This document shows, one piece after another, positions 5,334-56,692 of a stretch of 64,000 nucleotides of DNA. The position numbers and the translations under genes were made by a program. The DNA is taken from NCBI GenBank assembly GCA_964350735.1, contig CAYGKO010000004.1:19583-83582 (forward strand). The letters are read 5' to 3'. The notes beneath the pieces were generated by a model, which searched no databases, had not been told where the DNA came from, and saw nothing but the letters and a program-made list of their open reading frames with translations. Positions within the stretch are counted from its first letter, which is position 1. Each line of letters begins with the position of its first letter. The DNA is from an uncultured Candidatus Saccharibacteria bacterium (lineage in GTDB: Bacteria; Patescibacteriota; Minisyncoccia; Phycocordibacterales; UBA918).

Positions 5334-5335
5334 AT

Positions 5336-9682: not shown

Positions 9683-9725
9683 AGTAAGAGGCGCCCACGA
9701 ATTTAATCGCAGGCGCCCAAGTCTT

Positions 9726-10148: not shown

Positions 10149-10263
10149 TCCTTATTCCTTCCTTCAGCTGCAAACTAACTACTCATTTTATGACAAAAAA
10201 ATACACTCCTGTCAATCATCCCCGGGACAACATCTAAACTTACGCTAATCTTACTACCGATTA

Positions 10264-10764: not shown

Positions 10765-10773
10765 GAATCTGCA

Positions 10774-11667: not shown

Positions 11668-11673
11668 ATTAAT

Positions 11674-22215: not shown

Positions 22216-23922
22216 ATGGAAGATTCTTCTTCGCGTTCGCGTTTTGTATTTGATCGATTTTTTCGCTACCTAGACCGACGCCGACCAAGCGACCGTTTTA
22301 TCTTTGTAACCATCCTTTGGATCGGTGCTTTAGCCCTGGTCGCAGCTGCATTTTTATGGAATAACCAATACTCAAAATCATTCCCTAGCCAAGGCGGCAC
22401 CTTTATTGAAGGCGTGATTGGAACTCCACGATTTGTGAATCCAGTTCTGGCGGTGACCCGAGCTGACTATGACTTGGTAGAACTGGTATATAGCGGTCTA
22501 CTGACGCTAGAGACTGACGGCATGGTTCGTGAAGACCTGGCTGAATCAATCACCATTTCTGATGACGGCACGGTCTACAATGTAATCTTGCGCAACAACG
22601 CAACCTTCCACGATGGCGAAACTGTTGACACCGAAGATGTCGCCTACACCATTGGTTTGATCCAAACAGCTGAATTAAAAAGTCCGCTGCGCGGAAACTG
22701 GAATGGTGTTGTAGTTGAAGTTATAAGCGAGCGTGAAATCAACTTCGTTTTGGAAGAACCATACGTACCCTTTATTGAAAACCTCACTGTCGGTATCTTG
22801 CCCAAACACATCTGGGAAACACTCGCAATTGAAGAACTCCCATTTAGTCAACACAACACCGTGCCAATTGGATCTGGACCCTACAAAATTACAGAAGTCG
22901 GCCGAGATGCAGCAGGACTGATTGATGATTACACGCTCGAAGCGGTTTCTCCTGACGCTGCGAATATCAATACAGTGACTCTAAACTTCTATCAAAATGA
23001 AGTTGAGCTTTTAGAAGCGTTTGAGAAAGGAGACGTGCTAGCAAGCGCATCACTGAGTAACGGCGCAGTAGCTAATTTAGACATGGATACCTATAACGTA
23101 TACGAAGCATCTTTACCGCGCGTCTTTTCAGTTTTTATTAATCAAAATCGTACTGCAGCTCTCCGAGATAGTGCAGCCCGGGAAGCGTTGAGTGTAGCTA
23201 TCAACCGAGAAGCGTTAATTACTGAAACGTTAGCAGGTTATGGTACACCAACCAATTCACCATTACCTGGCCAAAAAAATCAAGAAACTAACACCAGTAG
23301 GAGTGGCATCGAAGCCGCCGCTGCTATACTTGAAGCAGCAGACTGGGAACGGAGTGCAAACGGACGTTGGGTGAAACAAATCTCAGAAATCGAAACCGAA
23401 TTAGCCATCACCATCACGACAGCAAATACACCAGTATTTGAACAAACAGCCGCTTACCTAGAGCGGGTGTGGACCGAACTTGGAGTATCAGTAAGTGTTG
23501 CGTTGTTTGAACAGTCAGACTTAGTCCAAGCTGTCATTCGACCGCGTGATTATCAAGCCTTGTTATTTGGAGCTGACATTGGTCGCAGCGCAGACCTATA
23601 TCCGTTCTGGCATTCATCGCAGCGGTCAGATCCTGGCCTCAATGTTGCGCTCTACGCCAATATCACTACCGATGCTCTGCTAGAAGAAGTGCGAATTACG
23701 CAAGATCCTGTCGCCCGAGCCGCTACGCTTGAACAAATCGCAAGTGAAATTACCACCGAACAACCTGCAATATTTTTATACAACCCATCCTTTGTCTACG
23801 TAGTCAAACAGAGCGTCGAGAATGTCTCTCTGACTGATATCAATAGACCAAGCGAACGGTTTACCAGCATTCAAGATTGGTACATGCAAGAAGAAAAATT
23901 ATGGCCCATTTTTTCAGATTGA
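22216..23922 (+). CDS. Family 5 extracellular solute-binding protein (OppA/DppA-like), membrane-anchored
   Basis: 568 aa with an N-terminal TM anchor. Its length and conserved blocks are typical of SBP_bac_5. No permease or ATPase genes are adjacent. Confidence 0.65.
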   Translation: MEDSSSRSRFVFDRFFRYLDRRRPSDRFIFVTILWIGALALVAAAFLWNNQYSKSFPSQGGTFIEGVIGTPRFVNPVLAVTRADYDLVELVYSGLLTLETDGMVREDLAESITISDDGTVYNVILRNNATFHDGETVDTEDVAYTIGLIQTAELKSPLRGNWNGVVVEVISEREINFVLEEPYVPFIENLTVGILPKHIWETLAIEELPFSQHNTVPIGSGPYKITEVGRDAAGLIDDYTLEAVSPDAANINTVTLNFYQNEVELLEAFEKGDVLASASLSNGAVANLDMDTYNVYEASLPRVFSVFINQNRTAALRDSAAREALSVAINREALITETLAGYGTPTNSPLPGQKNQETNTSRSGIEAAAAILEAADWERSANGRWVKQISEIETELAITITTANTPVFEQTAAYLERVWTELGVSVSVALFEQSDLVQAVIRPRDYQALLFGADIGRSADLYPFWHSSQRSDPGLNVALYANITTDALLEEVRITQDPVARAATLEQIASEITTEQPAIFLYNPSFVYVVKQSVENVSLTDINRPSERFTSIQDWYMQEEKLWPIFSD

Positions 23923-23969
23923 ACGAATTAACAGAACAGTATTACAAAATTAAACCTAACTAAATTATT

Positions 23970-25994
23970 ATGAACGAACGTACAACAAACAATGGAGCTG
24001 GACAGTCTACAAACCCAAGTGGACCAGCCCGACCACGAACTGGCGGACAACACCGAAGTCGCCCTGGTGGACGACCAAATAGTCGACCCGGTGGACGTCC
24101 TGGAGGGAGTGGACAAGGAGCCAACCGCCCACAAGGTGGCCGACCCAACCGCAATGGTGCCGGAGGAGGTGGTAACCGAAATGGCGGTGGCCGACCAGGT
24201 GGTGGTGGCAAACGTCGAGGTAACAATCAAAACCGGCGTCGCTCAATGACGAATCCGGCTCTTTCTCACCGCATGGCGGAACGTGATGAAAAATCTCCGG
24301 TACTGCCCGAAGTGACTGACGAAGATACCGTACGAGTGATCCCGATGTCTGGTGTGGAACAAATCGGACGAAATATGACGGTGGTTGAAACTAAAGACGA
24401 TATCATTATCTTTGATATTGGTTTTCAGTTTGTATCAGCTGACTCACACGCTCCTGGCGTAAACTACATTCTGCCAAACACGCAGTACCTAGAAGAACGA
24501 AAGCATAAGATTCGTGCGCTCGTGATCACTCATGGTCACCTCGACCACATTGGAGGTATTCCATTTGTTATGGAACGAATTGGCAATCCACCAATCTACA
24601 CGCAATACCTCACCTCTTTAATGGTGAAGAAACGACAAGAAGAGTTCCCTCATATGGACCCACTTGATATCAATGTGATCAAAGAGGGTGATTCTTTCAT
24701 GGTAAAGAATACCAAGATCAAGACTTTCCCCGTCACTCACTCTATTCCTGATGCAATGGGAGTGTGCGTCGAGACCAAGCATGGCGACGTAGTTATCACT
24801 GGAGACATCAAACTTACACACGAAGATGGTGAAGTAGTAAAAGAAGAACGTGAATCATGGGAAGGAGTTGGCAAGAACAACAACCTCGTCATGATGTGTG
24901 ACTCAACCAACGCCGACCGTGAAGGCTTCTCAGCGCCAGAAAGTACAGTATTCGAAAGCCTTGATAACATCATCAAAAATGCCACTGGCCGGATGATCAT
25001 TGGTACCTTTGCTTCACAGTTTGATCGACTAATTGCTATCATTGGATCTTGTGAAAAATATGGCAAAGTAGTCGTACCCGAAGGACGTAGTATTAAAGTA
25101 AGTATCGATATTGCAATAACAGCAAAGATGCTTGAAGTAAAACCTGGTGTGATTGTGTCTGCCCAAGAAGCCGACAACTATCCAGCTGATCGGGTAGTAA
25201 TTCTTTCAACTGGTGCTCAAGGTGAAGAGTTTGCCGCCTTGATGCGAATGGCGTGTGATAAACACAAGTTTATTACCCTCAGCGAACGAGACACACTCGT
25301 GCTCTCATCTTCAGTGATCCCGGGGAACGAGATCGCCGTGCAGAAATTAAAAGATAATATCTACCGGAAGAATGTACGAGTGATCAACTATCGATCTGCC
25401 TCAGTTCACTCTTCTGGACACGGAAACGCTGGTGAACTTAACTGGGTACGACAAACCGTCAAGCCTAAATTCCTTGTACCAGTACATGGTCATCACTACC
25501 ACCTCAAGAGTCACATGTATACAGCGGTAGAAAATGGCTTCCCTCGTGAAAACATTGCTATCCCTGACAATGGAACTTTAATCGACATCAAAAACGGAAC
25601 CGAAATGATTGTCCATAAACAAAAAGCTCCGACTGAGGAGATCTATGTCGATGGCTTCACTGTTGGCGCGCGACAAGAAGTAGTGCTTCGTGACCGCCTC
25701 TCACTTTCAAGTGACGGTATGTTTGTGATTATTGCGACCGTAAACACCAAGACCGGTAAGTTGCGTAAGTCACCAGACATCATCTCTCGTGGCTTTGTCT
25801 ACCTACGTGAAAATCAGCAACTACTCTCTGAAGCCCGCGTCCTCATCAAGAAAACGGTTGAAAAAAATACAGAGAATATGCACCCAATCGACCTCGACCT
25901 CGTGAAAGACGAACTGACAGATACAGTGAGCGGATTCCTGATGCAGAAGACCCAGAAAACACCAATGGTGATTCCAGTTTTGATTGGAATATAA
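23970..25994 (+). CDS. rnj: Ribonuclease J with an N-terminal Arg/Gly/Pro/Asn-rich disordered extension
   Basis: 674 aa. It has the metallo-beta-lactamase motif HGHLDHIGG and the beta-CASP and RNase J C-terminal regions. About the first 110 aa are low complexity (RPGGRPNSRPGGRPGGSGQG..). Confidence 0.9.
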   Translation: MNERTTNNGAGQSTNPSGPARPRTGGQHRSRPGGRPNSRPGGRPGGSGQGANRPQGGRPNRNGAGGGGNRNGGGRPGGGGKRRGNNQNRRRSMTNPALSHRMAERDEKSPVLPEVTDEDTVRVIPMSGVEQIGRNMTVVETKDDIIIFDIGFQFVSADSHAPGVNYILPNTQYLEERKHKIRALVITHGHLDHIGGIPFVMERIGNPPIYTQYLTSLMVKKRQEEFPHMDPLDINVIKEGDSFMVKNTKIKTFPVTHSIPDAMGVCVETKHGDVVITGDIKLTHEDGEVVKEERESWEGVGKNNNLVMMCDSTNADREGFSAPESTVFESLDNIIKNATGRMIIGTFASQFDRLIAIIGSCEKYGKVVVPEGRSIKVSIDIAITAKMLEVKPGVIVSAQEADNYPADRVVILSTGAQGEEFAALMRMACDKHKFITLSERDTLVLSSSVIPGNEIAVQKLKDNIYRKNVRVINYRSASVHSSGHGNAGELNWVRQTVKPKFLVPVHGHHYHLKSHMYTAVENGFPRENIAIPDNGTLIDIKNGTEMIVHKQKAPTEEIYVDGFTVGARQEVVLRDRLSLSSDGMFVIIATVNTKTGKLRKSPDIISRGFVYLRENQQLLSEARVLIKKTVEKNTENMHPIDLDLVKDELTDTVSGFLMQKTQKTPMVIPVLIGI

Positions 25995-26020
25995 AGTTAA
26001 AGCTTCTTAAGAAAAGAAAA

Positions 26021-26050
26021 GTCGCCAGTAGCAATGGCGGCTTTTCTTTT
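26021..26050 (+). terminator. Rho-independent terminator after rnj
   Basis: The hairpin GTCGCCA-gtagcaa-TGGCGGC is followed by TTTTCTTTT. Confidence 0.55.
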
Positions 26051-26100
26051 CCCCGTTACTACAAAATAATATTGCGGTAAGTTGGTACAATACACACACT

Positions 26101-27303
26101 ATGGCACACCACCGCAGACACTCGCTACATCGTGCTCACCCTGGAAAAGTTGGCTTTTGGGTTATCTATCTTCTTTCAGTACTCTTCAACTTCCACGGAC
26201 TTTTAGTAGCGTACAGTAACTCCACCTTCATGGAGCGCTTTGTGAGTCCTGAAACCATCGGTGGCCTGTACACTATCGGTTCGGCCTTAGCAGTCTTGGG
26301 CTTTTTGTTTATTTCCCGAGTGTTACGAAAAGTTGGTAACGTCCGCCTGACTATTTACTTGGCAATCGCTGAGATCATCGCCCTTATCACCCTTGCCCTC
26401 GCAGGCACGGCTGCAACGGCTCTAGTGGCCTTTGTGATCTTCCTCGTAATAAATCCAATGATTTTCCTGAGTATCGACATCTTCTCTGAAAGCCTCATCG
26501 GTAAAGACGAGAGTGGTACCGGCAGCAAACGCGGCCTGACACTCACCCTTATGAGCATTGCCGCTGTAATGGCTCCGCTAGCGATGGGGTTCATTGTAGG
26601 CGACAATGACGACAACCTTTTCCGCTCCTATTTAGTCTCGGCCGGGATATTTAGTATCTTTGTCTTAATAGTACTCCTTAAGTTCCGCGACTTTAAAGAT
26701 CCTGAGTACCGAGAGATTCAAGTACTCTCAGCCATTCAGTCTTTCTGGCATCAGCTTGATCTACGCAATGTCTTCTTGGCCCACTTTACCCTCCAACTCT
26801 TCTTCTCTTGGATGGTCATTTACGTACCCCTTTACCTAGCCACTGAGATCGGCTTCACCTGGGAACAAATCGGCTCGATTATTGCTGTTGGACTCTTTGC
26901 GTACGTTCTCTTTGAATACCCAATTGGTGTGCTGGCTGACAAATACATCGGCGAAAAAGAAATGATGGCGGTTGGGTTTGTCATTCTTGCCATCTCATCT
27001 TCCTGGATATCTTTCATGGCAGCTGCCCCAGTGCTTTCGTGGATGATCTTACTCTTTATTAGCCGTATCGGCGCTAGTCTAGTAGAAGCCACCACTGAAA
27101 GCTACTTCTTCAAACACACCAGTGGTGGGGACGCTAACATCATGAGCTTCTTCCGCCTCACGCGCCCACTCGCTATGCTCTTTGGAGCGCTCCTTGGTAG
27201 TGCCACGTTGCTGTACTTACCATTTGAACTCATGTTCGTCGTCCTTGGCTTTATGATGATTCCTGGTATATTCTTCACACTAGCCCTTAAAGATACAAAA
27301 TAG
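26101..27303 (+). CDS. MFS-type transporter
   Basis: 400 aa with about 12 TM helices arranged 6+6 around a central loop. Confidence 0.7.
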   Translation: MAHHRRHSLHRAHPGKVGFWVIYLLSVLFNFHGLLVAYSNSTFMERFVSPETIGGLYTIGSALAVLGFLFISRVLRKVGNVRLTIYLAIAEIIALITLALAGTAATALVAFVIFLVINPMIFLSIDIFSESLIGKDESGTGSKRGLTLTLMSIAAVMAPLAMGFIVGDNDDNLFRSYLVSAGIFSIFVLIVLLKFRDFKDPEYREIQVLSAIQSFWHQLDLRNVFLAHFTLQLFFSWMVIYVPLYLATEIGFTWEQIGSIIAVGLFAYVLFEYPIGVLADKYIGEKEMMAVGFVILAISSSWISFMAAAPVLSWMILLFISRIGASLVEATTESYFFKHTSGGDANIMSFFRLTRPLAMLFGALLGSATLLYLPFELMFVVLGFMMIPGIFFTLALKDTK

Positions 27304-33658: not shown

Positions 33659-34681
33659 CTATTCTGAAAATATTTCTAATCCCCGCTCCCACATTTCTGG
33701 ATGCCCCTTATCTTGCAACCAGTACCACCACTCTGCTCCCCAGAGATATTGTTTTTCGAAACGAGTTTTCTCAGCGTATTCTAAAATATCATTTAATTTA
33801 TCGATATCCATTCGTGAGTACTGAGTCTCAATATCTACATTAACAATTGGTTCTAACAACCAGGGTTCGGCTGATAACTCAATCAACATTGATTCCTGCT
33901 CTCCATACAAAAGACTCATGACACTTGTCTTCACTCGATAGAACCATGGCGGGAGAACTGTTCTGAACTGTCCTAGTTCTGGATTCCAGAAATGTACATA
34001 GACACTGGTTCCAAACGCGTCACCGTTTTTCCACGGACCAGCCCACAAGCCAAGGTTGCCGCTGTCTGTTACGAGAATTGGTCTTGTGGGGTCAAGCGAC
34101 TTCACTAACGCAACCTCTTCTTCTAGAAATACTTCGTCAAAATCTCCACAGTGTTCATATGCAAACACGGTAAGATACGGCTCATTTTCTACCTGCCAAT
34201 ACGTGATCGCGGGGCTATCTTTATAACGATTTACAATCAATTCAATGTACTCACGTACTTCTGCTTTTTGAGTTTCCCAAGAATCTTCTTTAGCCCACCC
34301 GGGCACGTGACATTCTGGCCACCGGGGTAAACGTCTACCGACAGCAAACACTACCTCAGCACCCACCTCTTCAGCTCGTTCAATTTGATAGTCTAATTCA
34401 CTGAAGTTGTAAGCGTCCCGTTTCGGTTCAACCATCGGCCAATGGGCTGCTAGGCGTAAATGGCGCACATTTAGTTCATCAAGAATAGCATCGTAGGTCT
34501 CCTTCCAATCTAACCCCAGCTCTCGGGCATAGGGTGTGTTAAATGACATGCCATATTGAATCTTTTCTGGTACCTCTCTATCAGCTAAAACACAAACAAC
34601 ACCGGCGAATACTGCAGATAGTAAGAAAACAACAAATGCTACTTTTTTCCACAGTGACTTTTTTAAAAGTGAGTGGATCAT
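33659..34681 (-). CDS. Glycoside hydrolase, clan GH-A (GH5/GH35/GH42-like)
   Basis: 340 aa with an N-terminal TM. It has WPMVEPKRDAYNFSELD and the acid/base motif WQVENEP characteristic of clan GH-A TIM-barrel glycosidases. Confidence 0.6.
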   Translation of the reverse strand: MIHSLLKKSLWKKVAFVVFLLSAVFAGVVCVLADREVPEKIQYGMSFNTPYARELGLDWKETYDAILDELNVRHLRLAAHWPMVEPKRDAYNFSELDYQIERAEEVGAEVVFAVGRRLPRWPECHVPGWAKEDSWETQKAEVREYIELIVNRYKDSPAITYWQVENEPYLTVFAYEHCGDFDEVFLEEEVALVKSLDPTRPILVTDSGNLGLWAGPWKNGDAFGTSVYVHFWNPELGQFRTVLPPWFYRVKTSVMSLLYGEQESMLIELSAEPWLLEPIVNVDIETQYSRMDIDKLNDILEYAEKTRFEKQYLWGAEWWYWLQDKGHPEMWERGLEIFSE

Positions 34682-35610
34682 GTAAATAAGACGAGGAAAC
34701 CTAATGAGATGATTGCTACATACGCCACCTTCCGCATAATTGTCTGGAAATCAAACTCATTTTCGCCAGCAGATTCTGGGATAAGACGGCCAATAACCAA
34801 ACTCAAGAGAATAATGAATACAAACTTTAACCCATCGAGCGCTTGAACCACCGCCACATCACCCCAGTCAGTTGCCTTGAGTAACATAAATGCAGCGACA
34901 CCAGCCAAGATTTTTGTTGCGAGTACAATAACGCCAGTTTTTTTGCTTGTGGTCTTGGTTTGAGCTCGGATCTTTTCTAAGTATGCCGGCACCAGAAGCA
35001 ACGAGAGTGCAAACAGCACAAATGCGACGCGCGACCAAAAGAAACCATCGTCAAAACTAGTTTCTTGAAACAACCCCTTCATCGCAATAAAGTGCAGGGC
35101 GAAGAAGAGACCAGCGTGTACCGCATGTAATGCTACGCTACCAGAAAAGCGCATCTGTGAAACTAACATGGTGCCAAAAGCTAGAATGAGAATCCCGGCA
35201 ATGAAATTATGGGTCAGCTGTGCATCTAAGAAAAGGTACGACATACCAAACGTAGAAATCGCTGAAACAGCTCCAATCACGGGAATAACATCTGAAGCAT
35301 CAGAATGCTTAAGACCATCATACATAGACACCAGAGCCATAAAGAACGTGTAAGCGGCCAAGAAAGACATACCTACGACTTGAATAGTTGGTACGGCAAC
35401 ATTGCTCAACTGAGGAAATCCAATTGAGGCCAGACCTGGAATAAATCCAACTGCATATACAGCAATCCAACCACCTGTCACCAGACATGAGTAAAAAGCA
35501 TACACGAAGGGTCGTGGCAATGCTTTCTCGTCCGTCACAATATATTTATCTAGAATCGCAACGATTGCATTCAAGAATTGTCCGGCCGTAGCCAGTAGAA
35601 TCCAGGCCAT
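34678..35610 (-). CDS. EamA/DMT-superfamily transporter
   Basis: 310 aa with about 10 TM helices in a duplicated 5+5 arrangement. It overlaps the start of the downstream GH gene by 4 bp. Confidence 0.55.
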   Translation of the reverse strand: MAWILLATAGQFLNAIVAILDKYIVTDEKALPRPFVYAFYSCLVTGGWIAVYAVGFIPGLASIGFPQLSNVAVPTIQVVGMSFLAAYTFFMALVSMYDGLKHSDASDVIPVIGAVSAISTFGMSYLFLDAQLTHNFIAGILILAFGTMLVSQMRFSGSVALHAVHAGLFFALHFIAMKGLFQETSFDDGFFWSRVAFVLFALSLLLVPAYLEKIRAQTKTTSKKTGVIVLATKILAGVAAFMLLKATDWGDVAVVQALDGLKFVFIILLSLVIGRLIPESAGENEFDFQTIMRKVAYVAIISLGFLVLFT

Positions 35611-35686
35611 AGATACGTTGTACGACGTATTACTTACAGTATGACACTAAATGAGCCTGAAAATAGACCCAGCTGTGAAAAACAAG

Positions 35687-36910
35687 CTAAATATCAATCT
35701 GATTATTTTGAATAATTTTTTTATATTCTAGAGCTGAAGAACGAACTTTGCGCTCTAAAGTGGCATAGTCAATTTTAATCAAGCCAAACCGCTTTGTTAC
35801 TCCCAAAGCCCATTCGTAGTTATCCATGAGTGACCAATACATATGCCCCCGCACATCAACTCCAGCCTCCATGGCACGAGCCATTCCCGTTACTTGCACC
35901 TGGATATATTGTGCGCGCAAATCATCATCCCAGTCAGCCAAACCAGCCTCAGAGACAAATATCGGCTTCTGATACTTCTTTAAGATCATAAGCGCCCCGT
36001 AGATACCGCTTGGATATACCTTCCAATCCATGTCGGTACGTAGATAATTTTTTTTATCACCGAATTTTGTATGCCGATAATAATTCAACCCAATCGAATC
36101 AAGATGATCATCAATCTTATTTAAAAACTGTATAGTCTGGAAGTACACCATCACACGGGCGTATAGTTTGTGGCGCCATTTTTGATCTGCTTCAAAAAAG
36201 TGCACATGCTTCACGATACTCACATCTACTTCAGGTTTTACCTGCTTAATACTTTCATACGCTGCGTTATGAGCAGTAGTCAAATGCTTCGCCACTGCAA
36301 AGTACGTGAAGAAATGCCAAAATCGAGCTTTTGCGCCAGTACGCTCAGAAGTTCCGTCTTCCTTGCCAATCTTTTTCCATCCAATCTTTGCTCGCTTAAA
36401 TGGTGGCCACGCCCCGTATAAATACCCGTGAGTTGCATACACATTTGGCTCGTTCATCGTAGTGTAGTCAACACACAAGTCACCGAACTCACCCACGACA
36501 AACGCGCAATAGCGCGCAAAAATATCAGCCGCGTCAGATCGCTCAAAACCACCTGACTCTGTAAACCAGATCGGGAGAGTGAAATGCCACAACGTCACAA
36601 ACGGACGAATGTTTCGCTTTTTTAATGCCCTAAGCACCTCACGATAGTGCTCAATTTCTGTTTGATTAAACTCCCCTTCTCGCGGCTCTATTCTAGACCA
36701 CTCAACTCCAAACCGGTGCGCATTATGTCCAAGTTCTTTCGCCAAATCAAAATCTTCCTCATACCGGTGATAATGGTCTGCTAATCGTCCTGCCGTGGGG
36801 ACTCTTCTCTCTTTTGCGGCCTTGGCCCAATCACAGTTCTCATTCCAGCCTTCAACCTGATATGAAGCTGTGGCGGCTCCCCAATAAAAATCTTCTGGAA
36901 ACTTGAACAT
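35687..36910 (-). CDS. Glycoside hydrolase family 1 (beta-glucosidase-like)
   Basis: 407 aa with the GH1 N-terminal signature FPEDFYWGAATASYQVEG, the acid/base TMNEP and a C-terminal region typical of GH1. Confidence 0.85.
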   Translation of the reverse strand: MFKFPEDFYWGAATASYQVEGWNENCDWAKAAKERRVPTAGRLADHYHRYEEDFDLAKELGHNAHRFGVEWSRIEPREGEFNQTEIEHYREVLRALKKRNIRPFVTLWHFTLPIWFTESGGFERSDAADIFARYCAFVVGEFGDLCVDYTTMNEPNVYATHGYLYGAWPPFKRAKIGWKKIGKEDGTSERTGAKARFWHFFTYFAVAKHLTTAHNAAYESIKQVKPEVDVSIVKHVHFFEADQKWRHKLYARVMVYFQTIQFLNKIDDHLDSIGLNYYRHTKFGDKKNYLRTDMDWKVYPSGIYGALMILKKYQKPIFVSEAGLADWDDDLRAQYIQVQVTGMARAMEAGVDVRGHMYWSLMDNYEWALGVTKRFGLIKIDYATLERKVRSSALEYKKIIQNNQIDI

Positions 36911-48909: not shown

Positions 48910-49611
48910 TTAATTCTCTGGCAATCTATCTTCTTTTGAACCATAGAGATCAGCAATGATCGCAGCGCGTTTTTTGAAATTACGTACAGAGAACAGAAGT
49001 GCACCTAGAGTGAATAGTCCTTGCCCAACAGCGATTGGCACATGCCAAGACGCTTCCAGGCTCACTCCTGGATATAAATACAAAAAGAGTAGAGCCGCTA
49101 CATTAAAGAGAACCGTCAGTGGTATCAGCACATACAATCCCAACTTTTGCTCACGCAGTAGCACTTCGTAAAAATCAGCTCCGGCTGGAGTTGCAGCAAT
49201 TTCTACCCTCTGCTCCTTTACAATGGACAGGTCTACGAGGTACAGCAAGCCTCCGAAAATCGATATTAGTAAGAACACCCAGAACCACACCAAAGTATCC
49301 GTCACGTTTGAAAACGCCACCACCTGGAAGAACCCAATCACAAAGTATAAAAAGGTGTGCTGCAAGCGAATTGGCCAATCAATAAAACTAAGAGTGTGAC
49401 TGATCGCTTCAGACCAGAAAAACAAAGCAAATAAAAAACCAGTCAAAATATACGGCCAGTATTCCAGATACTCCAGATCTACAACTGAAGCTGCCGATAC
49501 TGCTAATGCACTAAGTGCTACCCCTTGCACCACACTCACCAAGACCAGCTCAATAGTGACAACCAACTCCCCTAATGTTCCTCGTTCGGTAAAGATTTTT
49601 GCTTTGGACAT
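48910..49611 (-). CDS. Hypothetical polytopic membrane protein
   Basis: 233 aa with about 6 TM helices. Confidence 0.4.
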   Translation of the reverse strand: MSKAKIFTERGTLGELVVTIELVLVSVVQGVALSALAVSAASVVDLEYLEYWPYILTGFLFALFFWSEAISHTLSFIDWPIRLQHTFLYFVIGFFQVVAFSNVTDTLVWFWVFLLISIFGGLLYLVDLSIVKEQRVEIAATPAGADFYEVLLREQKLGLYVLIPLTVLFNVAALLFLYLYPGVSLEASWHVPIAVGQGLFTLGALLFSVRNFKKRAAIIADLYGSKEDRLPEN

Positions 49612-49614: not shown

Positions 49615-50403
49615 TTAGAAGTGTGCGACTGCTAACGTCGTATGTTTTATCGCTTCATCAACCACCTTCCGCATCACTGCCACCGTAGCTACCGGGTTGG
49701 CTCCAACTGCAGTTTCATTCGAAAGCATCGTCGCACTCGCACCATCAAGCACAGCATGGGCAATATCTGAAATATCGGCCCGTGATGGATCAGCATCATC
49801 AATCATTGATGTTAGCATTTCAGTTGCCACAATAGCCGGCTTTCCGACAGCATTACAACGTCGTAAAATATCTTTTTTTACAAACGGTAGGGTCTCAATC
49901 GGAATTGCATCCCCCAAGTCACCCCGAGCAATCATAATACCGTCGGCAGCTGTGATAATCTCATCCAGATTATTGAGTGCTTCCGAACGTTCAATTTTGG
50001 CAATTACTTTAGTCGACACTCGGTGATCTTGCAGCAACGCTTTCAATTCCAAAATATCAGTCGCATCTTTTACAAACGACAAGGCAACGTACTCTAAATC
50101 ATGCTTAACCATAGCAGCTAAATCAGAGCGGTCTTTGTCAGTAATAACCGATGCCGATTGGTCAAAAGTATGGACCACACCTTGCTGCACCCTAGGACCA
50201 GACAAATCTTGAATAATTGGCACCTGTAACCCAAGCCTGACAGCTGCTTGACGCACATCATGCACAAACCGCTGATGTTCTTCGTGTGTACCCCACGAGA
50301 AATTAAGTCGCGCTATCGATAAACCAGCTTCCATCATATTGGTGATGATGGCGCTATCTTTTGAAGCCGGACCAATCGTGGCCACAATTTGAGTAGTAGA
50401 CAT
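49615..50403 (-). CDS. pyk: Minimal pyruvate kinase (A/TIM-barrel domain only; B and C domains absent)
   Basis: 262 aa. It has the PK N-terminus (QIVATIGPAS...ARLNFSWGTHEEH) and PK signature (VIAKIERSEALNNLDEI, MIARGDLGDAIPIE). There is no lid domain insertion after GPRVQ and no C-terminal allosteric domain. Confidence 0.7.
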   Translation of the reverse strand: MSTTQIVATIGPASKDSAIITNMMEAGLSIARLNFSWGTHEEHQRFVHDVRQAAVRLGLQVPIIQDLSGPRVQQGVVHTFDQSASVITDKDRSDLAAMVKHDLEYVALSFVKDATDILELKALLQDHRVSTKVIAKIERSEALNNLDEIITAADGIMIARGDLGDAIPIETLPFVKKDILRRCNAVGKPAIVATEMLTSMIDDADPSRADISDIAHAVLDGASATMLSNETAVGANPVATVAVMRKVVDEAIKHTTLAVAHF

Positions 50404-50406
50404 ACG

Positions 50407-52881
50407 TTAAGAGTAGATAGTAATAAGTCTATTATACTTCACCGCTCGTTCTGACTGACTCGGTGCACCTGCCTTTAAACCAAATGCTTTTGTGCCAAAT
50501 GCTAAATCAGCAATAAAATTATCATCCGTCTCACCACTACGGTGGCTCACAATGCACCAAATTTTATTTTCATAGGCAAGTTGCATGGTGGCCAGTGTAT
50601 CGCTCAGCGTCCCGATCTGATTAGGCTTAATAATCAACGCATTCACTGCATTACAGTCGATCGCTTTTTGTAACTGCTCAACATTTGTAGTGGTCAAATC
50701 ATCACCGATGGTCAGCACCCCTGGGTGCGCCTCGTGATAGGAGGCAAAAGCCTTCATATCATGCTCTTGATATGGATCTTCGACCATTTGTAGCATTGGG
50801 AATTTTTTATGGAGTTCAGTATAAAAATCAAGCATACCTTCGACACTAAGGATTTCTCCTCCTAGTGCATATGCTTCCTTTTTATAAAACGAACTAGCGG
50901 CCACATCAGTTCCAATCAAAATTGGAACTTCACACTGAGCTCGTTTAATCGCTGTGGCAATATGCGCAAACGGTTCGAATACATCATGACTCGGAATCAC
51001 AAAGCCACCTTCATCACCGACAGTGATCTCTTTGTGTTTGTAAGTCTCATGCAATACCTCCCGCAGCTCTCGCTGCACTTGTTTTACAGCCGCTAGTGCT
51101 GCCTGTACATCATCAGTGTCTGGAATAATTTGATGTTCTTGAATTGCACTACCCACCTTGGCGTGTTGACCACCATTAATGAGATTGACGAATAATCGCG
51201 GTGCAACTGACTGCTCTCGATATGAAAAGAGTTCTGCGATATGCTGCCAGGTTTCGACTCCCTTCACTGCTGCAGCCGCTTTACACGCAGCCACACTAAT
51301 ACCAAGTGCAAGATTCCCGCCAATAGCAGCGAAGTTTTTAGTCCCATCAATTGTATGCAACGCGGCATCAAGCGCAGCCTGGTCGGTCACGTCCATACCC
51401 AGCAGCACTGACTGCACTTTCTTTTGTAGTATCTGTACTGCTTTGTGGGCAGGAAGCACCGCCACTTCATACTCACCAGTACTGGCCCCACTTGGTACGC
51501 TGAACGTACCAGTTTCGCCACCAGCTATGACACTCACTTGAACAGTTGGCTTCCCTCGGGAGTCTTGTATCACTCGTGCTTCTACGTCAGTGATTGCTGT
51601 ATCGGTCAATTCCGACTGCGCAGTAATGAGGAGCATCAAGTCTGACACATTTGACTCCAGCAATCCGGTTTTAATATGCCCTCCAGTTGTATTGAAAAAC
51701 GGGAAGGAATCAAAGCGCTCTAAATGATCAGCAATTGACAAGGCTCGCTCTGCTGCGCGGATAACAATTTCTTCATCAGCAATCGCTCCAGCCATGTCAG
51801 TATTATCACGTCCATCAGACGCTAGCGAAACAAAGGCTTGATTAGGCTCAAGTGCTGACAACATACTGAGCGCTAAATAACTATTGCGACCACCAGTCCC
51901 ATCCGCTGCTTCAGTCACCATTACTTTTGTTTCTCCACCCATACAGCGCGCTACACCGCTACCCGCTTCTTCTAAGAGTAATTCTTTAGTTTCAGGCGCT
52001 GTGGTGTACTGAGTAGCGGACACCAGGTCAGCTCGATATGATAATGCTTCGGCTTTTTCCTGCATTGCATTCAAGGCTGTGACATTCGAAGCAATCGTGA
52101 AGTTATGCACTCGCTCAAAATACTTTGGCTCCTTTGGGGTCTCCACTAGTCGAAATGAACCCAGCGCATATTTCTCAATCAGCGCTTGGGCGTCATGAAT
52201 CGTGGTGGTGTCAAAACAGGTCGGACCAGAGGCTACAGCTGCTATATCACCACCTGGCACATCAGAAAAAACTAACCCTGCGACCGTTGCTGGGTAGAGA
52301 GCTTTAGCTAGTCCTCCACCTTTAAGGTGTGAGATATGCTTGCGGACAATATTCAATTCTTCAATCGTGCCGCCGCTTTGTAGGAATGATTCAAACAACT
52401 GAATCCCTTGAGTGCACTCCCCCATCGATGAGCACAACAGCGCGGAACCTCCTCCAGACACAACTACTAGTACCAAGTCTCGCTCTTTAGCAGTGCGTGC
52501 CACTTCTTCAATGTGTTTGGTGGCAGTATAGTTTTGTTGCGATGGTAATGGATGCGTACCGGCATACGTATCAACTACCTGACAAACTTTTTCGGCCACG
52601 CCAATCACTGCACCATTTTTTACTCGGCCATTTAAAATCTGCTCCAGAGTGTGCGCAGCAGTACAAGCCACCTTGCCAAACCCGATGACGTACACATGTT
52701 CGTGCTCACGTAGGTCAAATTGATGCCCTTGAATCTGTAACACATCATCACAGAGAGTAATATTGTTGTTAAGAACTGTCTTTGTATCAATCGCTTGCAG
52801 GCCTGCTTCTGCAATCAATAAAGCATCCCGCCGCAGGGGTGAAGTTGCTAGTTCGTCAAAATTTTTAATAATCTGCCTCAT
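50407..52881 (-). CDS. Fusion protein: glycerate 2-kinase (MOFRL/GckA family) fused to enolase
   Basis: 824 aa. Roughly the first 400 aa carry DUF4147/MOFRL features (VVVSGGGSALL, C-terminal TG..SNVSDLMLLI). The enolase part follows (IQDSRGKPTVQVSV...SVPSGASTGEYE and C-terminal SHRSGETDDNFIADLAFG...PSQSERAVKYNRL). It is one uninterrupted frame whose start overlaps the upstream dehydrogenase stop by 4 bp. Confidence 0.8.
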   Translation of the reverse strand: MRQIIKNFDELATSPLRRDALLIAEAGLQAIDTKTVLNNNITLCDDVLQIQGHQFDLREHEHVYVIGFGKVACTAAHTLEQILNGRVKNGAVIGVAEKVCQVVDTYAGTHPLPSQQNYTATKHIEEVARTAKERDLVLVVVSGGGSALLCSSMGECTQGIQLFESFLQSGGTIEELNIVRKHISHLKGGGLAKALYPATVAGLVFSDVPGGDIAAVASGPTCFDTTTIHDAQALIEKYALGSFRLVETPKEPKYFERVHNFTIASNVTALNAMQEKAEALSYRADLVSATQYTTAPETKELLLEEAGSGVARCMGGETKVMVTEAADGTGGRNSYLALSMLSALEPNQAFVSLASDGRDNTDMAGAIADEEIVIRAAERALSIADHLERFDSFPFFNTTGGHIKTGLLESNVSDLMLLITAQSELTDTAITDVEARVIQDSRGKPTVQVSVIAGGETGTFSVPSGASTGEYEVAVLPAHKAVQILQKKVQSVLLGMDVTDQAALDAALHTIDGTKNFAAIGGNLALGISVAACKAAAAVKGVETWQHIAELFSYREQSVAPRLFVNLINGGQHAKVGSAIQEHQIIPDTDDVQAALAAVKQVQRELREVLHETYKHKEITVGDEGGFVIPSHDVFEPFAHIATAIKRAQCEVPILIGTDVAASSFYKKEAYALGGEILSVEGMLDFYTELHKKFPMLQMVEDPYQEHDMKAFASYHEAHPGVLTIGDDLTTTNVEQLQKAIDCNAVNALIIKPNQIGTLSDTLATMQLAYENKIWCIVSHRSGETDDNFIADLAFGTKAFGLKAGAPSQSERAVKYNRLITIYS

Positions 52882-53885
52882 ACTGATACCTGATTTGCCG
52901 CTACTCCAGCTGCAAATGACTGGATGTTACTCACCGTAATATCAGTGATTTCCCGCTTGGCTTCAGCGGTGTTAAAAGCAATATGTGGTGTCACGATCAC
53001 ATTCGACATATCAATGAGCGCATGATCGGCCACTAGGGTTTCCCATAGTGTAGCGTCGACATTTTGTGCGACCAGTAACTCAGCCTCCTCGCGTAATTCG
53101 TGCTCTCCTTCAAGCACATCAAGTCCGGCTCCAGCTATATGTCCGGACTGCAGTGCCTCTACCAAAGCTTTGGTGTCGACCACTTCGCCACGAGCGGTAT
53201 TTATTAAATAGCTACCCGACTTCATCAAAGCTAGTTTTTCTGCATTTAGTAGATGGTGTGTAGCGGGAATAGCAGGTACGTGCAACGTCACGATATCAGC
53301 CTGAATCAATACTTCATCAAGCGACTGATATTGCAGCGCCTGCTCATTTGCGAACCCCTCATCTGGCTGTACGTCATAGGCGACTACATTCATACCGATC
53401 CCTCTTGCGATCTCACATACACTGCGTCCGATCGCGCCGGTACCCACCACCCCTAAAGTCTTTCCGTACAGATCAAACCCTTCATACGTTGCAAAATTTG
53501 TTACCCCTGCATCTTTCTGCATATCAGTATACGAACGAAAGGCGTTCCGCGACAACGCAAACATGAGCGCAATCGCATATTCAGCGACCGTACGCGTGCC
53601 ATAGTGCGGGACGCGGCACACTACCATCCCTCGTTCAGCTGCCGCCGCAACATCAATATGATCATATCCAGCCGAACGCGCGGCAATCAATTTTAAATTT
53701 GGAAATAAACTAAGTGTTTCAGTAGTAACTGGAGAGTCAACAAATACACTTAAAACCTCCATCGCTTCACGATCGGCAACAGATAATTCCTCGACACTTT
53801 CAACCACCACCCACTCATGAGCAGGCGCTGTTGCTGCCAAAATATCGATCTCGCCTGGATACGGTCGAACATAGCCTATTTTCAT
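52878..53885 (-). CDS. D-isomer-specific 2-hydroxyacid dehydrogenase (glycerate dehydrogenase/hydroxypyruvate reductase-like)
   Basis: 335 aa with NAD-binding GKTLGVVGTGAIGRSV and the catalytic His region in PHIAFNT. Confidence 0.8.
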   Translation of the reverse strand: MKIGYVRPYPGEIDILAATAPAHEWVVVESVEELSVADREAMEVLSVFVDSPVTTETLSLFPNLKLIAARSAGYDHIDVAAAAERGMVVCRVPHYGTRTVAEYAIALMFALSRNAFRSYTDMQKDAGVTNFATYEGFDLYGKTLGVVGTGAIGRSVCEIARGIGMNVVAYDVQPDEGFANEQALQYQSLDEVLIQADIVTLHVPAIPATHHLLNAEKLALMKSGSYLINTARGEVVDTKALVEALQSGHIAGAGLDVLEGEHELREEAELLVAQNVDATLWETLVADHALIDMSNVIVTPHIAFNTAEAKREITDITVSNIQSFAAGVAANQVSV

Positions 53886-54040
53886 AGCTGTATTCTACCT
53901 TGATTTAAACACCAGCAATGAAGCCTATCAACATTTTGTGTTGCCGGACAAGGATTCGAATCTTACAGATTCTGTGCAGCGTTTGGATATTTATATTCGC
54001 TTCGCTCTATAAATATCTCAAACCGCTTTTCGAATCCCTC

Positions 54041-54063
54041 GTAACAGTCCCCCGGACTGTTAC
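54041..54063. repeat. Perfect 10-bp-stem hairpin near tRNA-like fragments
   Basis: The hairpin is gtaacagtcc-ccc-ggactgttac. Degenerate GATTCGAATCC (T-loop-like) fragments flank it at about 53950-53965 and 54030-54040. Confidence 0.35.
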
Positions 54064-54075: not shown

Positions 54076-54107
54076 TGTAAAAACAAAAATCTCCTAACGG
54101 AGATTTT
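54076..54107 (-). terminator. Terminator downstream of tRNA-Gln
   Basis: On the minus strand AAAATCTCC-gtta-GGAGATTTT is followed by TGTTTTT. Confidence 0.45.
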
Positions 54108-54117
54108 ATGCTAACAG

Positions 54118-54188
54118 CTGCCCGACAGGGATTCGAACCCCAGTTGACGGTACCAGAAACCGCAGTCCTACCACTAGACGATCGGGCA
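54118..54188 (-). tRNA. tRNA-Gln (anticodon CUG), 71 nt
   Basis: A manual fold gives acceptor TGCCCGA/TCGGGCA, D-arm GTCT-AGTGGTA-GGAC, anticodon stem GCGGT/ACCGT with loop TTCTGGT, and T-arm TGGGG-TTCGAAT-CCCTG. G37 is unusual and there are two G.U pairs in the T-stem. Confidence 0.6.
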
Positions 54189-54249: not shown

Positions 54250-54891
54250 TTACCGCTTGCTGACATCTATCTTTTCGATCAATTCCCAGGCGCAGGTATG
54301 CGACGCTGCGTTCTCATTAAAATGTAGATGAAACACTTCAGTATTTTTAGTCCGGAGAGTATTCAAAATACCTTTGGCATACTGATAAAACGACAAATCA
54401 ATCTCGTTACAGATCAACTCTACAAACAAATTCATAAAGATGGCGTGTGACACTACCACCACCCGATCCCCTTTACTCTCTCCGATCGCATCTTTGGCAT
54501 CGTGAATCCGATTACGAATATCAAACATGTTCTCAGCGCCTTCGTGTTGCCAATCGTTATTATCTCGCTGCCAGAAAAAGTCTTTCAGATATCTAAATGA
54601 TGCCAGCGAAGCATGTTTCTTGCCATACAAACTATCGGGTCGACGGAACTCAGCTACACTTGGTAGCGGCATGATCGGTACATTGACATGCGACTCGATA
54701 ATCTCAGCTGTCTCACGGGCGCGAACCAACGGACTGGCAAAGAGCGTATCAATCGACTGGCTCACCAAATACTGCCCCACCGTGTGCGCCTGCTGCCTCC
54801 CCTTCTCATTAAGGGGTGATTCGGGCAGTTGATGCACGTGCTTGGCATTGAAGGCCGTCTGACCATGTCGTACAAAAAAGATCTCCATCAA
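54250..54891 (-). CDS. Histidine phosphatase superfamily protein (phosphoglycerate mutase-like), paralog A
   Basis: 213 aa with the N-terminal catalytic RHG motif (IFFVRHGQTAFN). Confidence 0.7.
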   Translation of the reverse strand: MMEIFFVRHGQTAFNAKHVHQLPESPLNEKGRQQAHTVGQYLVSQSIDTLFASPLVRARETAEIIESHVNVPIMPLPSVAEFRRPDSLYGKKHASLASFRYLKDFFWQRDNNDWQHEGAENMFDIRNRIHDAKDAIGESKGDRVVVVSHAIFMNLFVELICNEIDLSFYQYAKGILNTLRTKNTEVFHLHFNENAASHTCAWELIEKIDVSKR

Positions 54892-54960: not shown

Positions 54961-55587
54961 TTATTCAGCGAAGTGCGCGTGGTCGTTCCAAGTCAAAAGC
55001 TGCCAATTTGTTTCAGGACTATACTGAAAAACAGTTATACCCGTATTCGACAGTCGCAATGCTTTATACATCTGGGCCCACAGCTCTGGGGTTGGAACGC
55101 CAGAACTTAATACATACGTGGCAAAAAACTTTGCAATATACTCATGGGAAACCACCATAGTATCTCCAGATTTTTCTTGTAGCAGATCAAATGCTGTTTT
55201 GGTGCGATCGGTTAATTCTGTAAAGCTTTCTGAATCTTCAAACTTCCAATCAGCTTCATGCAGATTTGCCACTTCTGCTTCTCTATACATGACATACTCG
55301 GGAAGAGTTTTATCCCAACCATCAAAACGAGAAGGACGCTTACGCTCGGCAAACAAATCACTTACTTCAACGCTGTGTGAAGTAATCGATGCGACAGCTG
55401 CTGCCGTGTCAGAAGCCCGAGCTGCTGGACTTGAATAGAGTGTCTCAAACTGCAAACTGCCGGCTCGTGCCGCAAGCAAGGACGCCTCCTTTACTCCCAA
55501 ATCATTCAACGGTGTCTGGGCTGATTGCTGAATATTACCTACTGAACCGTCAGTCGCTCCATGACGGACAAAATACACTCGTTTCAT
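54961..55587 (-). CDS. Histidine phosphatase superfamily protein (phosphoglycerate mutase-like), paralog B
   Basis: 208 aa with the RHG motif (VYFVRHGATDGS). It is a tandem paralog of the preceding gene. Confidence 0.7.
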   Translation of the reverse strand: MKRVYFVRHGATDGSVGNIQQSAQTPLNDLGVKEASLLAARAGSLQFETLYSSPAARASDTAAAVASITSHSVEVSDLFAERKRPSRFDGWDKTLPEYVMYREAEVANLHEADWKFEDSESFTELTDRTKTAFDLLQEKSGDTMVVSHEYIAKFFATYVLSSGVPTPELWAQMYKALRLSNTGITVFQYSPETNWQLLTWNDHAHFAE

Positions 55588-55589: not shown

Positions 55590-56648
55590 CTAGTTTTTTT
55601 CAGCTTGTTCTAATAAGACAATTTCAAGTGGCAACTGTGTCAGTGCGGTGTGTTGAATCTGGGCTGAAGCTTCCAGCAAACGAACCAGCAGGTGCGAGTT
55701 GATAGCGGAAGTACTGGCGGTAGCGATCGACTTGACGAGCTCTCGATCTCCTTCGCCAAAAGGGGCCAGGAGTTCTGCTTCTCTCGCTGGCACATTCCGC
55801 AACATCATGACGGCCCGCACCCGCTCGAGTAGCAGTCTGGTGAACAACTTCATATCAACATGATCTCCTTTGGCCGCAGCAATCGCTGCCGTTCCTTTCT
55901 CAACGTCTTTTTCATGCAGTGCCGACAGCACATCACCCACCAAAGCAGTCCTAGGAGCACCAATGATAGTCGCCACTTCATCAGCGTCACCAATAGTGTC
56001 GCCTGAGGCCAAGATGACTTTCTGAGTCACTCCTAAAGCATCTCGAAACGACCCATCAGCTGCGATTGCAATCAAGTCTGCCGCCTCTGGCTTGAGTGAG
56101 AAACCTTCTTTCTTAGCCACATCTGTAACTGTTGCCGCCAAAACTTCCCGCGACGGAGAACGCATGGTGAACACCTGACACCGCGAGAGGATGGTATCGA
56201 GCAACTTCTCTACTTCAGTCGTAGCTAAGATAAATATCACGTGCGCTGGCGGCTCTTCCAGCGTCTTCAAAAGTGCATTGAACGCTTCTTTGGTGAGCAT
56301 GTGTACCTCATCGATGATGTAGACCTTGCGTTCACTTTCGTACGGCAGTGTATGCACTGCTTCACGCAGCTCACGGATGTCGTCAATCCCCCGATTACTC
56401 GCCGCATCAATCTCATACAAATCTACATCGCTCGTACCAATCTCACGCGCAAAAATACGCGCCAAAGTAGTCTTCCCCGTCCCTCGTCCGCCGCAAAATA
56501 ATAAAGCATGTGGAATAGCCTTTTTCTTGATCGCTCCTTCGAGCACCGTCACAATATGGTCTTGATCGCGCACTTCTGCGAATGTCTGCGGCCGGTACTT
56601 ACGGTACAGCGCTCCCGTGGTTTCTGTCATATATGAGTAGTATACCAT
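55590..56648 (-). CDS. dnaX: DNA polymerase III subunit gamma/tau (short form)
   Basis: 352 aa with KYRPQTFAEV, Walker A GGRGTGKTT, EIDAASNRGIDDIRE, DEVHMLTKEAFNALLKTLEEPP and the SRC motif. The start may be at the internal MTETTG. Confidence 0.8.
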   Translation of the reverse strand: MVYYSYMTETTGALYRKYRPQTFAEVRDQDHIVTVLEGAIKKKAIPHALLFCGGRGTGKTTLARIFAREIGTSDVDLYEIDAASNRGIDDIRELREAVHTLPYESERKVYIIDEVHMLTKEAFNALLKTLEEPPAHVIFILATTEVEKLLDTILSRCQVFTMRSPSREVLAATVTDVAKKEGFSLKPEAADLIAIAADGSFRDALGVTQKVILASGDTIGDADEVATIIGAPRTALVGDVLSALHEKDVEKGTAAIAAAKGDHVDMKLFTRLLLERVRAVMMLRNVPAREAELLAPFGEGDRELVKSIATASTSAINSHLLVRLLEASAQIQHTALTQLPLEIVLLEQAEKN

Positions 56649-56692
56649 TTAGAAAAATCGGCCGCCCCGTGGGGCGGCCGATTTTTCTAAGT

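Follow-up and report, generated by a model that had tools for sequence, protein, structure and literature searches.

A window of 64,000 nucleotides of contig CAYGKO010000004.1, from an uncultured Candidatus Saccharibacteria bacterium, is the stretch of DNA analysed in this study. It carries on its minus strand a cassette of three closely packed genes, which encode a D-2-hydroxyacid dehydrogenase (DH), a fusion of a glycerate 2-kinase (GK) with an enolase (Eno) and a minimal pyruvate kinase (PK). A first-pass annotation of this DNA had described three minus-strand genes joined by an ATGA overlap and a 3-nucleotide (nt) gap; when the sequence is read, the coordinates and junctions match exactly, and the gene identities proposed there, including the kinase–enolase fusion, are supported by the Pfam domains. 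The cassette is composed of the following elements.

52878..53885, minus strand: D-2-hydroxyacid dehydrogenase, 335 amino acids (aa), NADH-type and LDHD/X9-like, the first gene of the cassette (open reading frame list, Pfam).
50407-52881, minus strand: glycerate-2-kinase::enolase fusion, 824 aa (open reading frame list, Pfam).
51622..52881, minus strand: glycerate 2-kinase domain (class II, DUF4147 + MOFRL), residues 1 to about 420 of the fusion (Pfam).
50407..51594, minus strand: enolase domain, residues 430-824 plus the stop codon of the fusion (TIGR01060).
49615..50403, minus strand: minimal PK, 262 aa, consisting of the A-domain (beta/alpha)8 barrel only (Pfam, AlphaFold2 (AF2) model).
50152..50193, minus strand: conserved linker in place of the B (lid) domain, PK residues ~71-84 (alignment).
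52878..52881, minus strand: ATGA stop/start overlap between the dehydrogenase and fusion genes (sequence read).
50404..50406, minus strand: 3-nt spacer from the fusion stop codon TAA to the PK start codon (sequence read).

The tight coupling claimed in the first-pass annotation holds, with both the overlap and the 3-nt spacer confirmed in the sequence. The first junction reads GTATGAGG, in which the dehydrogenase stop codon TGA and the fusion ATG share 4 nt, and the second, from the fusion to PK (50403-50409), reads TAA-CGT-ATG. A third tight junction, TAA-AGT-ATG, follows between PK and a 233-aa membrane open reading frame (ORF; 48910-49611). The genes appear to be translationally coupled and probably constitute one transcription unit. 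An identical cassette is also found on Logan contig ERR3534985_32350 (L001). Among the annotated ORFs of the window there is no further glycolytic gene and no aminotransferase. A scan for sigma-70 promoters upstream of the dehydrogenase gene returned nothing above chance. A TAGAAT box is located 6 nt ahead of the dehydrogenase ATG and may point to a leaderless mRNA.

The fusion protein comprises four Pfam domains: DUF4147 (PF13660; 4.9e-57, residues 21-241) and MOFRL (PF05161; 2.4e-22, residues 313-414) in the kinase portion, and Enolase_N (430-548) and Enolase_C (560-822) in the C-terminal half. The kinase and enolase domains are joined by a linker of about nine residues. All four domains are present in approximately 45 clusters (90% identity) of 822-838 aa that are 44-100% identical to the window protein; the fusion is thus real and under selection, and an assembly or frameshift artefact is ruled out. 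Homologues of both the fusion and the short PK come from assemblies of Patescibacteria, or the Candidate Phyla Radiation (CPR). One such homologue of the fusion, MCA9366935.1 from 'Candidatus Kaiserbacteria' (62% identity), carries no name beyond 'DUF4147 domain-containing protein'. When the whole fusion is modelled with AF2, the individual domains come out confident (pLDDT 91) and the pTM is 0.65, so that no fixed inter-domain geometry is predicted.

In the kinase half every family-invariant column is kept (32-sequence alignment of the window protein and 31 unfused relatives), and the invariant motifs GxGK, SGGGS, RKH, SDVxG, GGET, GGRN, DGxD and NVxD are all present. The domain can be aligned with PH0495 (1x3l) and TM1585 (2b8n; deposition title 'glycerate kinase, putative'). 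Its scores lie below the curated equivalog cutoffs of the closest named NCBIfam models, NF041176 (187 versus 550 bits) and NF040791 (167 versus 670 bits), both of which are lineage-specific archaeal models. All characterized kinases of the MOFRL family produce 2-phosphoglycerate (2-PG; Kehrer 2007, PMC2063504). These family members, together with the fusion to enolase in about 45 clusters, suggest that the product here is 2-PG rather than 3-phosphoglycerate (3-PG); since 2-PG, the product of a MOFRL kinase, is the substrate of enolase, the fusion would join two consecutive steps. The enolase half passes the TIGR01060 equivalog model (322.8 bits, with the cutoff at 300, over positions 1-406 of the 425-position profile) and, compared with the M. 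jannaschii enolase 2pa6, keeps all of the catalytic and metal-binding motifs (SGASTGE, GDEGGF, EDP, GDDL, KPNQIG, SHRSGET and LKAGAP). It is not full length at the C-terminus, ending about 19 profile positions early, directly after ...RLITIYS.

The most unusual component of the cassette is the PK, which possesses neither a lid nor a C-terminal domain, a feature absent from the first-pass annotation. The Pfam match falls into two stretches that skip profile positions ~70-172, and there is no match to PK_C (PF02887). Against Pfam and PDB entries, residues ~1-73 align to the first half of the A domain and residues ~85-255 to the second; what is missing between them, positions ~70 to ~170 of the profile or of 2e28, is the B lid, and a linker of ~14 residues stands in for this ~100-residue domain. 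The chain terminates with the last helix of the barrel, the C-terminal alpha/beta domain being absent by both Pfam and the AF2 model. This model is a complete (beta/alpha)8 barrel (pLDDT 92.5, pTM 0.90) in which the linker forms a small hairpin of low confidence (pLDDT ~52), and Foldseek matches it to PK A domains (TMq 0.86-0.93).

More than 100 clusters of such short PKs (90% identity) were found, all of them 227-277 aa long and 51-100% identical. In a search of 1.84 billion representatives, approximately 18 clusters (50% identity) match the PK profile in one unbroken stretch, and the lower-ranked matches are all canonical two-stretch PKs. Across 39 homologues of 50-72% identity, residues R32, N34, D66, K136, E138, D162, T194, S228 and E230 are invariant and S36 is conserved in at least 90%. 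The linker follows the pattern GP-R-VQ-x-G-x-x-H-T-F... in the same 39 sequences, with R71 and H78 invariant and Q73 at least 90% conserved. R71 is found at the position of Glu117 in muscle PK, where a positive side chain is a mark of K+-independent PKs. In rabbit muscle PK structures ATP is contacted by the lid residues Arg119 and Lys206, and the B domain that carries them is absent here. The window protein scores 293 on TIGR01064, under the equivalog cutoff of 306.4, and its short homologues bear the NCBI name 'hypothetical protein'. The conserved residues, the operon slot that the protein has in common with phosphoenolpyruvate (PEP) synthase (PPS) and its occurrence in fusions suggest PK activity (PEP + ADP → pyruvate + ATP). 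Among the top PK representatives, P0242 (1051 aa) has PK barrel domains and, at its C-terminus, an adenylate kinase domain.

The cassette recurs in relatives, on the contigs L082-L087, the flanking genes of which are unrelated to one another. Fusion proteins 45-63% identical to that of the window were found in the independent contigs L082-L085. With fusions denoted by a double colon and the short PK as mini-PK, L082 and L083 have the order DH - GK::Eno - mini-PK and L084 has DH - GK::Eno - PPS. The arrangement is DH - GK::Eno::PK in L085, where kinase, enolase and PK form a single protein of 1092 aa, DH - GK::PK in L086 and full-length PK - GK::PPS - DH in L087. The junction between the dehydrogenase and the kinase protein ranges from an 8-nt overlap to an 8-nt gap in L082-L086; at the junction between the fusion and PK, the genes overlap by 8 nt in L082 and are 2 nt apart in L083, and in L085 they are merged into one. 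Because the dehydrogenase, the fusion and a PEP/pyruvate enzyme recur in the same order and tightly packed on independent contigs, the arrangement in the window is beyond chance.

Unfused versions are also widespread. Each of three mini-PKs picked by PK similarity only (66, 59 and 53% identity) is part of an unfused DH-GK-Eno-miniPK cassette. A scan of GTDB genomes by kinase-domain alignment returned at least 600 stretches, and among the matches listed there are only unfused relatives, with at most 48% identity; this kinase-anchored scan contains at least ~50 CPR loci with the recurrent orders DH-GK-Eno-PPS, GK-PPS-DH-Eno, GK-PPS-Eno and DH-GK-Eno-miniPK. Scanning metagenome contigs with the single fusion protein, for which the peptides were over-specific, gave five distant unfused loci. 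PEP synthase takes the place of PK in most relatives, and the occupation of one cassette slot by both enzymes suggests that they serve the same net step. Further fusions are miniPK::Eno (P0252, 679 aa) and, in both orders, His_Phos_1::miniPK and miniPK::His_Phos_1 (P0249, 483 aa, and P0257, 482 aa). The His_Phos_1 part of P0249 and P0257 is of the dPGM type (RHGESEWN, LNERDYG) and is orthologous to a dPGM-type His_Phos_1 gene (11249-11902) located two genes downstream of the cassette in L086. The fusions of mini-PK to dPGM in both orders are evidence for the short dPGM as the phosphoglycerate mutase (PGM) of this clade. Across 61 CPR loci no aminotransferase, aldehyde dehydrogenase or transporter recurs beside the cassette, and the only recurrent extra neighbours are synteny genes, LepA and an ABC exporter-like protein. 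The unit is a four-function module of dehydrogenase, glycerate kinase, enolase and PEP/pyruvate enzyme, in which the enzymes acting on phospho-intermediates are fused in many combinations. Comparative genomics, which the first-pass annotation had proposed as a check, gives strong confirmation that kinase, enolase and PEP/pyruvate enzyme belong together and are repeatedly fused to each other, and the organization it had called unusual is normal in this CPR clade.

Some loci depart from this pattern. L020, L021, L031, L036 and L040 have no dehydrogenase, and the kinase is followed by proteins resembling the halves of a split transketolase, as judged by motifs only (L041 has the first family only); in four of these five loci an FAD-linked GlcD-type oxidase-like protein follows as well, which may represent a different glycerate-related context. 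In L096, which has an unfused DH-GK-Eno-miniPK cassette, a GAPDH gene (1293-2336) lies divergently upstream, and an aldehyde dehydrogenase and a thiamine pyrophosphate (TPP)-dependent enzyme (8386-11450) lie downstream. The enolase of L095 (4636-5987) is called as two genes (118 aa without a Pfam match and 339 aa), possibly a split gene or a frameshift.

The best overall explanation, to which we give a probability of about one half, is that the window cassette is the conserved core of a C3-acid module in CPR bacteria (Parcubacteria/Paceibacteria-type). The glycerate → 2-PG → PEP → pyruvate module proposed in the first-pass annotation is upheld by the recurrent cassettes and fusions in relatives, and a path from glycerate to pyruvate through kinase, enolase and PK is probable. 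The transcription unit would start after the terminator of an upstream tRNA-Gln. The N-terminal class II kinase of the fusion would phosphorylate D-glycerate to 2-PG, the C-terminal enolase domain would dehydrate 2-PG to PEP and the minimal PK would phosphorylate ADP at the expense of PEP. Overall, the conversion would be glycerate → pyruvate + H2O with no net ATP, because the kinase spends the ATP that PK regains (-1 and +1); the description of the route as ATP-yielding thus does not stand on stoichiometric grounds. 2-PG arriving from glycolysis through the same enolase and PK would give one ATP. The dehydrogenase, as an NADH-type 2-ketoacid reductase, would by a slight lean reduce pyruvate to D-lactate and so regenerate NAD+. 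PK would fix the direction toward pyruvate in the window version of the cassette, and in PPS-bearing relatives an additional phosphoanhydride might in principle be gained, or the direction reversed.

Several observations weigh against this interpretation. A lid-less PK may be slow, may depend on a partner or may do something else. PEP synthase, the replacement for PK in most relatives, usually runs toward PEP. Across the 61 CPR loci the cassette has no recurrent neighbour that could supply glycerate, be it a transporter, an aldehyde dehydrogenase or an aminotransferase. The dehydrogenase gene mostly adjoins and overlaps that of the kinase (directly beside it, often overlapping, in about 29 of the 61 loci), and seven loci contain DH and GK only within ±7 kb, which favours the order of the first-pass annotation, with the dehydrogenase ahead of the kinase. 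Outside CPR the kinase is paired with dehydrogenases of the glyoxylate/hydroxypyruvate reductase type; Bathyarchaeia and other lineages have a short-loop GHR/HprA-type enzyme next to it, the same partnership with a non-orthologous enzyme. The last three of these observations speak for the strongest rival explanation, which retains an appreciable minority of the probability and in which the dehydrogenase is a hydroxypyruvate reductase feeding the kinase: hydroxypyruvate → glycerate → 2-PG → PEP → pyruvate. Serine transamination would supply the hydroxypyruvate, a source already proposed in Thermotoga and in the serine cycle. It is also in favour of this rival that hydroxypyruvate is accepted by members of most 2-hydroxyacid dehydrogenase (2HADH) subfamilies (PMC6303947).

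The Pfam domains of the dehydrogenase are 2-Hacid_dh_C (1.1e-57) and 2-Hacid_dh (3.3e-26), and the Arg-Glu-His triad and Rossmann motif are present (NTARG, DVLEGE, TPH, GTGAIG). The best solved relative is 3kb6 (Aquifex aq_727 'D-LDH', X9), matched over residues 38-327 including a long insert before TPHIAF, and the protein aligns end to end with the D-lactate dehydrogenases (D-LDHs) 3kb6, 4zgs (Chlamydomonas-type) and 5z20 (Pseudomonas) with an insert of similar length. A Tyr in the beta5-alphaA loop (PHYG) and a Phe in the betaG-alpha5 loop (HIAF), the pocket features of LDHD as defined in PMC6303947, are conserved across CPR dehydrogenases, and the NADH-type Asp is present in the window enzyme. 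Its best NCBIfam scores are ~200 bits, far under all curated cutoffs, and the JGI name for its homologues is D-lactate dehydrogenase. No fusion of the dehydrogenase to any partner was found among its top 120 homologues (~335 aa). 3kb6 belongs to subfamily X9, an uncharacterized sister of LDHD, and has lactate bound in the structure (Matelska 2018, PMC6303947).

Two other assignments were rejected. A SerA-type phosphoglycerate dehydrogenase (PGDH), which the first-pass annotation had named as grounds for refuting its own reading, is contradicted by an alignment to 1wwk that breaks at residue 261, at the LDHD-type insert, and by a TIGR01327 score of 212 against a cutoff of 454 over 307 of 525 positions only, with no C-terminal extension. 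A GHRB-type glyoxylate/hydroxypyruvate reductase does not fit a protein with H-I-A-F and a long insert, without the Gly-Ser motif and the short loop. In Bathyarchaeia, the GK-adjacent dehydrogenases combine the short loop with H-I-(A/S)-S.

The Gly-Ser motif after the catalytic His has been tied to hydroxypyruvate preference (Matelska 2018, PMC6303947), and the window dehydrogenase has Ala-Phe at this position. The absence of this motif, the LDHD-type Tyr/Phe pocket and a nearest solved relative that binds lactate all count against a hydroxypyruvate reductase, as does the lack of a recurrent aminotransferase or other hydroxypyruvate source in the 61 loci or among the annotated window ORFs. Moreover, in the PPS variants the dehydrogenase lies between PPS and enolase and not beside the kinase. 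The assignment as a hydroxypyruvate reductase made in the first-pass annotation is therefore not established; given its membership of the LDHD/X9 clade, the enzyme may act after pyruvate and not before glycerate. For its principal reaction, these sequence features lead us to prefer, tentatively, pyruvate → D-lactate; hydroxypyruvate → glycerate is only somewhat less probable, and an enzyme serving both reactions seems unlikely.

A more speculative variant of the C3-acid module, which we consider improbable, is that the fusion and the lid-less PK act as one complex, in which the ADP left at the kinase site is turned back into ATP on the spot, with PEP at the open barrel as the donor. If this were true, PEP would be the real donor (glycerate + PEP → 2-PG + pyruvate, then 2-PG → PEP), the self-priming cycle would amount to an ATP-independent 'glycerate dehydratase' and docking of the partner would compensate for the lost B lid. 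Such a complex would explain why the inspected mini-PK neighbourhoods are all glycerate-kinase cassettes, why GK::PK occurs without enolase and why R71 and H78 are invariant.

The boundaries of the cassette and its neighbours are as follows.

54117-54188, minus strand: tRNA-Gln(CTG) (tRNA search).
54086..54107, minus strand: terminator-like hairpin just after tRNA-Gln, a 9-pair stem followed by a T-run.
54250-54891 and 54961-55587: two His_Phos_1 ORFs (Pfam).
48910..49611, minus strand: multi-pass membrane ORF of 233 aa, 3 nt after the PK stop codon, with no Pfam match.

Between the hairpin and the dehydrogenase start lie ~200 nt of non-coding DNA, and the hairpin is likely to be the upstream boundary of the cassette transcription unit. 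At the other end, the membrane ORF is present on the identical contig L001 but has a homologue in none of the related loci, and the genes 3' of PK in L082 and L083 differ from it; it is possibly co-transcribed, as a neighbour and not a conserved member of the cassette. The tandem histidine phosphatases that the first-pass annotation placed upstream as PGAM-like paralogues are both present there. They are only 25% identical to each other, and their best solved relatives are PhoE (1ebb/1h2e) and PspA (4ij5), with no dPGM among solved relatives at E ≤ 1e-8. Neither gives a BLAST match to the dPGM-type domains of P0249, P0257 and L086, and neither has a homologue in any related locus. A His_Phos_1 gene near the cassette is absent in five of the six fused relatives (L082-L085 and L087), and L086 has the unrelated dPGM-type one. 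With the tRNA-Gln and the hairpin intervening, the pair is rejected both as operon members and as dPGM.

These phosphatases underlie a PGM bypass, which we regard as very improbable: a histidine phosphatase would convert 3-PG to glycerate and the kinase would re-phosphorylate C2, making up for an absent PGM and spending one ATP in doing so. Two PhoE-like genes do lie just upstream of the cassette, and the PhoE of B. stearothermophilus reportedly prefers 3-PG. PGM has not been detected in several Parcubacteria clades (Jaffe 2020, PMC7304191). Against the bypass stand the tRNA-Gln and hairpin that separate the phosphatases from the cassette, their lack of conservation in related loci and the waste of one ATP per triose. 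A mutase, moreover, exists in the clade, since relatives carry a genuine dPGM-type His_Phos_1, fused to mini-PK or two genes downstream of the cassette.

About as improbable is an assimilatory direction, with D-lactate (through the dehydrogenase) and glycerate (through the kinase) entering PEP and 2-PG for gluconeogenesis and cell-wall precursors. The prevalence in relatives of PEP synthase, which in most bacteria works toward PEP, would suit this direction; however, the window and its close relatives have PK, which is effectively irreversible toward pyruvate, NAD-linked lactate oxidation is unfavourable, and the slot shared by PK and PPS suggests one net step. Least likely of all is decay of the 262-aa PK to a remnant, or a role for it as a non-catalytic subunit, as two missing domains out of three and a score below the TIGR01064 cutoff might imply: it belongs to a family of uniform length (more than 100 clusters at 90% and ~18 at 50% identity) with invariant catalytic and linker residues, kept in frame in several different fusions.

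The C3-acid module resembles known systems in part. A MOFRL glycerate kinase is already known to cluster with PK in gcl-hyi-glxR-ttuD-pyk of Pseudomonas, in M. extorquens and in ttu of A. vitis (PMC2063504). These bacterial glyoxylate, tartrate and serine-cycle clusters likewise place the same kinase family beside PK and lead from glycerate via 2-PG and PEP to pyruvate. In them, however, kinase, enolase and PK are each a full-length protein of their own and the tartronate semialdehyde/hydroxypyruvate enzymes are co-encoded, whereas the window has a kinase::enolase fusion, an A-domain-only PK and an LDHD/X9-like partner, with no glycerate-forming enzymes clustered. The lower branch of the non-phosphorylative Entner–Doudoroff pathway (Thermoproteus, Sulfolobus, Picrophilus and Thermoplasma) has the same order of steps and a MOFRL kinase, and it is the archaeal kinases of this branch that the closest named NCBIfam models describe; the CPR cassettes differ in that they belong to bacteria, encode fused or truncated proteins and have no recurrent glyceraldehyde-oxidizing enzyme. 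The window dehydrogenase is like LDHD and X9 (aq_727, 3kb6) in its full-length alignment, insert, Tyr/Phe pair and NADH-type Asp, but a constant glycerate-kinase partner is a trait of the CPR enzyme and no known feature of LDHD. Canonical PK (A+B+C) and the C-domain-less PKs of ~340-350 aa (PRK06739 type) share with the window PK a homologous A barrel and the residues for PEP, Mg and phosphoryl transfer; the window PK differs from both in the ~14-residue linker that replaces the B lid, and it has no C domain. No published description of a GK::Eno fusion or of a B-domain-less PK was found in the open-access literature. As far as this literature shows, the kinase–enolase fusion and its relatives, the family of PKs without lid and C domain, the constancy of the LDHD/X9-like partner and the CPR-wide distribution are new.

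Some further features of the window were observed. A 19-nt direct repeat of the tRNA-Gln 3' end (89% identity) occurs at 53942-53960 versus 54119-54137, 177 nt downstream of the tRNA, and an inverted copy of TTCGAATCCCT lies at 54029-54039; the tRNA-end repeat could be an integration scar. The 200-nt leader before the dehydrogenase gene also contains two perfect 10-nt inverted repeats (53986-54017 and 54041-54063), and an Rfam search of this leader region found nothing except the tRNA. A perfect 20-bp hairpin with 10 GC pairs (56648-56691), between a DnaX-like clamp-loader gene and the next ORF, resembles a strong and possibly bidirectional terminator. Elsewhere, a CHASE2-adenylate/guanylate cyclase protein and, after it, two FecR-domain proteins (2095-6253) make up a signalling cluster in a reduced genome; an MFS transporter lies with an SBP_bac_5 binding protein (22216-27303), and GH1 and GH42/GH10-like glycoside hydrolases have unannotated neighbours (33659-36910).

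In CPR bacteria PGM, enolase and PK have been described as patchy, with PK in about a third of genomes, and PEP turnover was left open, divergent undetected forms being allowed for (Jaffe 2020, PMC7304191). Part of this glycolysis gap may be an annotation artefact, because the short PK falls below the TIGR01064 cutoff and passes as a 'hypothetical protein' and the enolase is hidden in a 'DUF4147 domain-containing' protein; the cassette proteins are candidates for filling some of the gaps. The fusions GK::Eno, GK::PK, PK::Eno, dPGM::PK, GK::Eno::PK and GK::PPS form a web which, by the Rosetta-stone argument, speaks strongly for a lower-glycolysis unit that is physically coupled in minimal cells. 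A conserved PK family without a lid is a natural experiment on lid function and a compact candidate for pathway engineering. For the organisms themselves, the cassette suggests that CPR episymbionts regularly take in carbon as glycerate.

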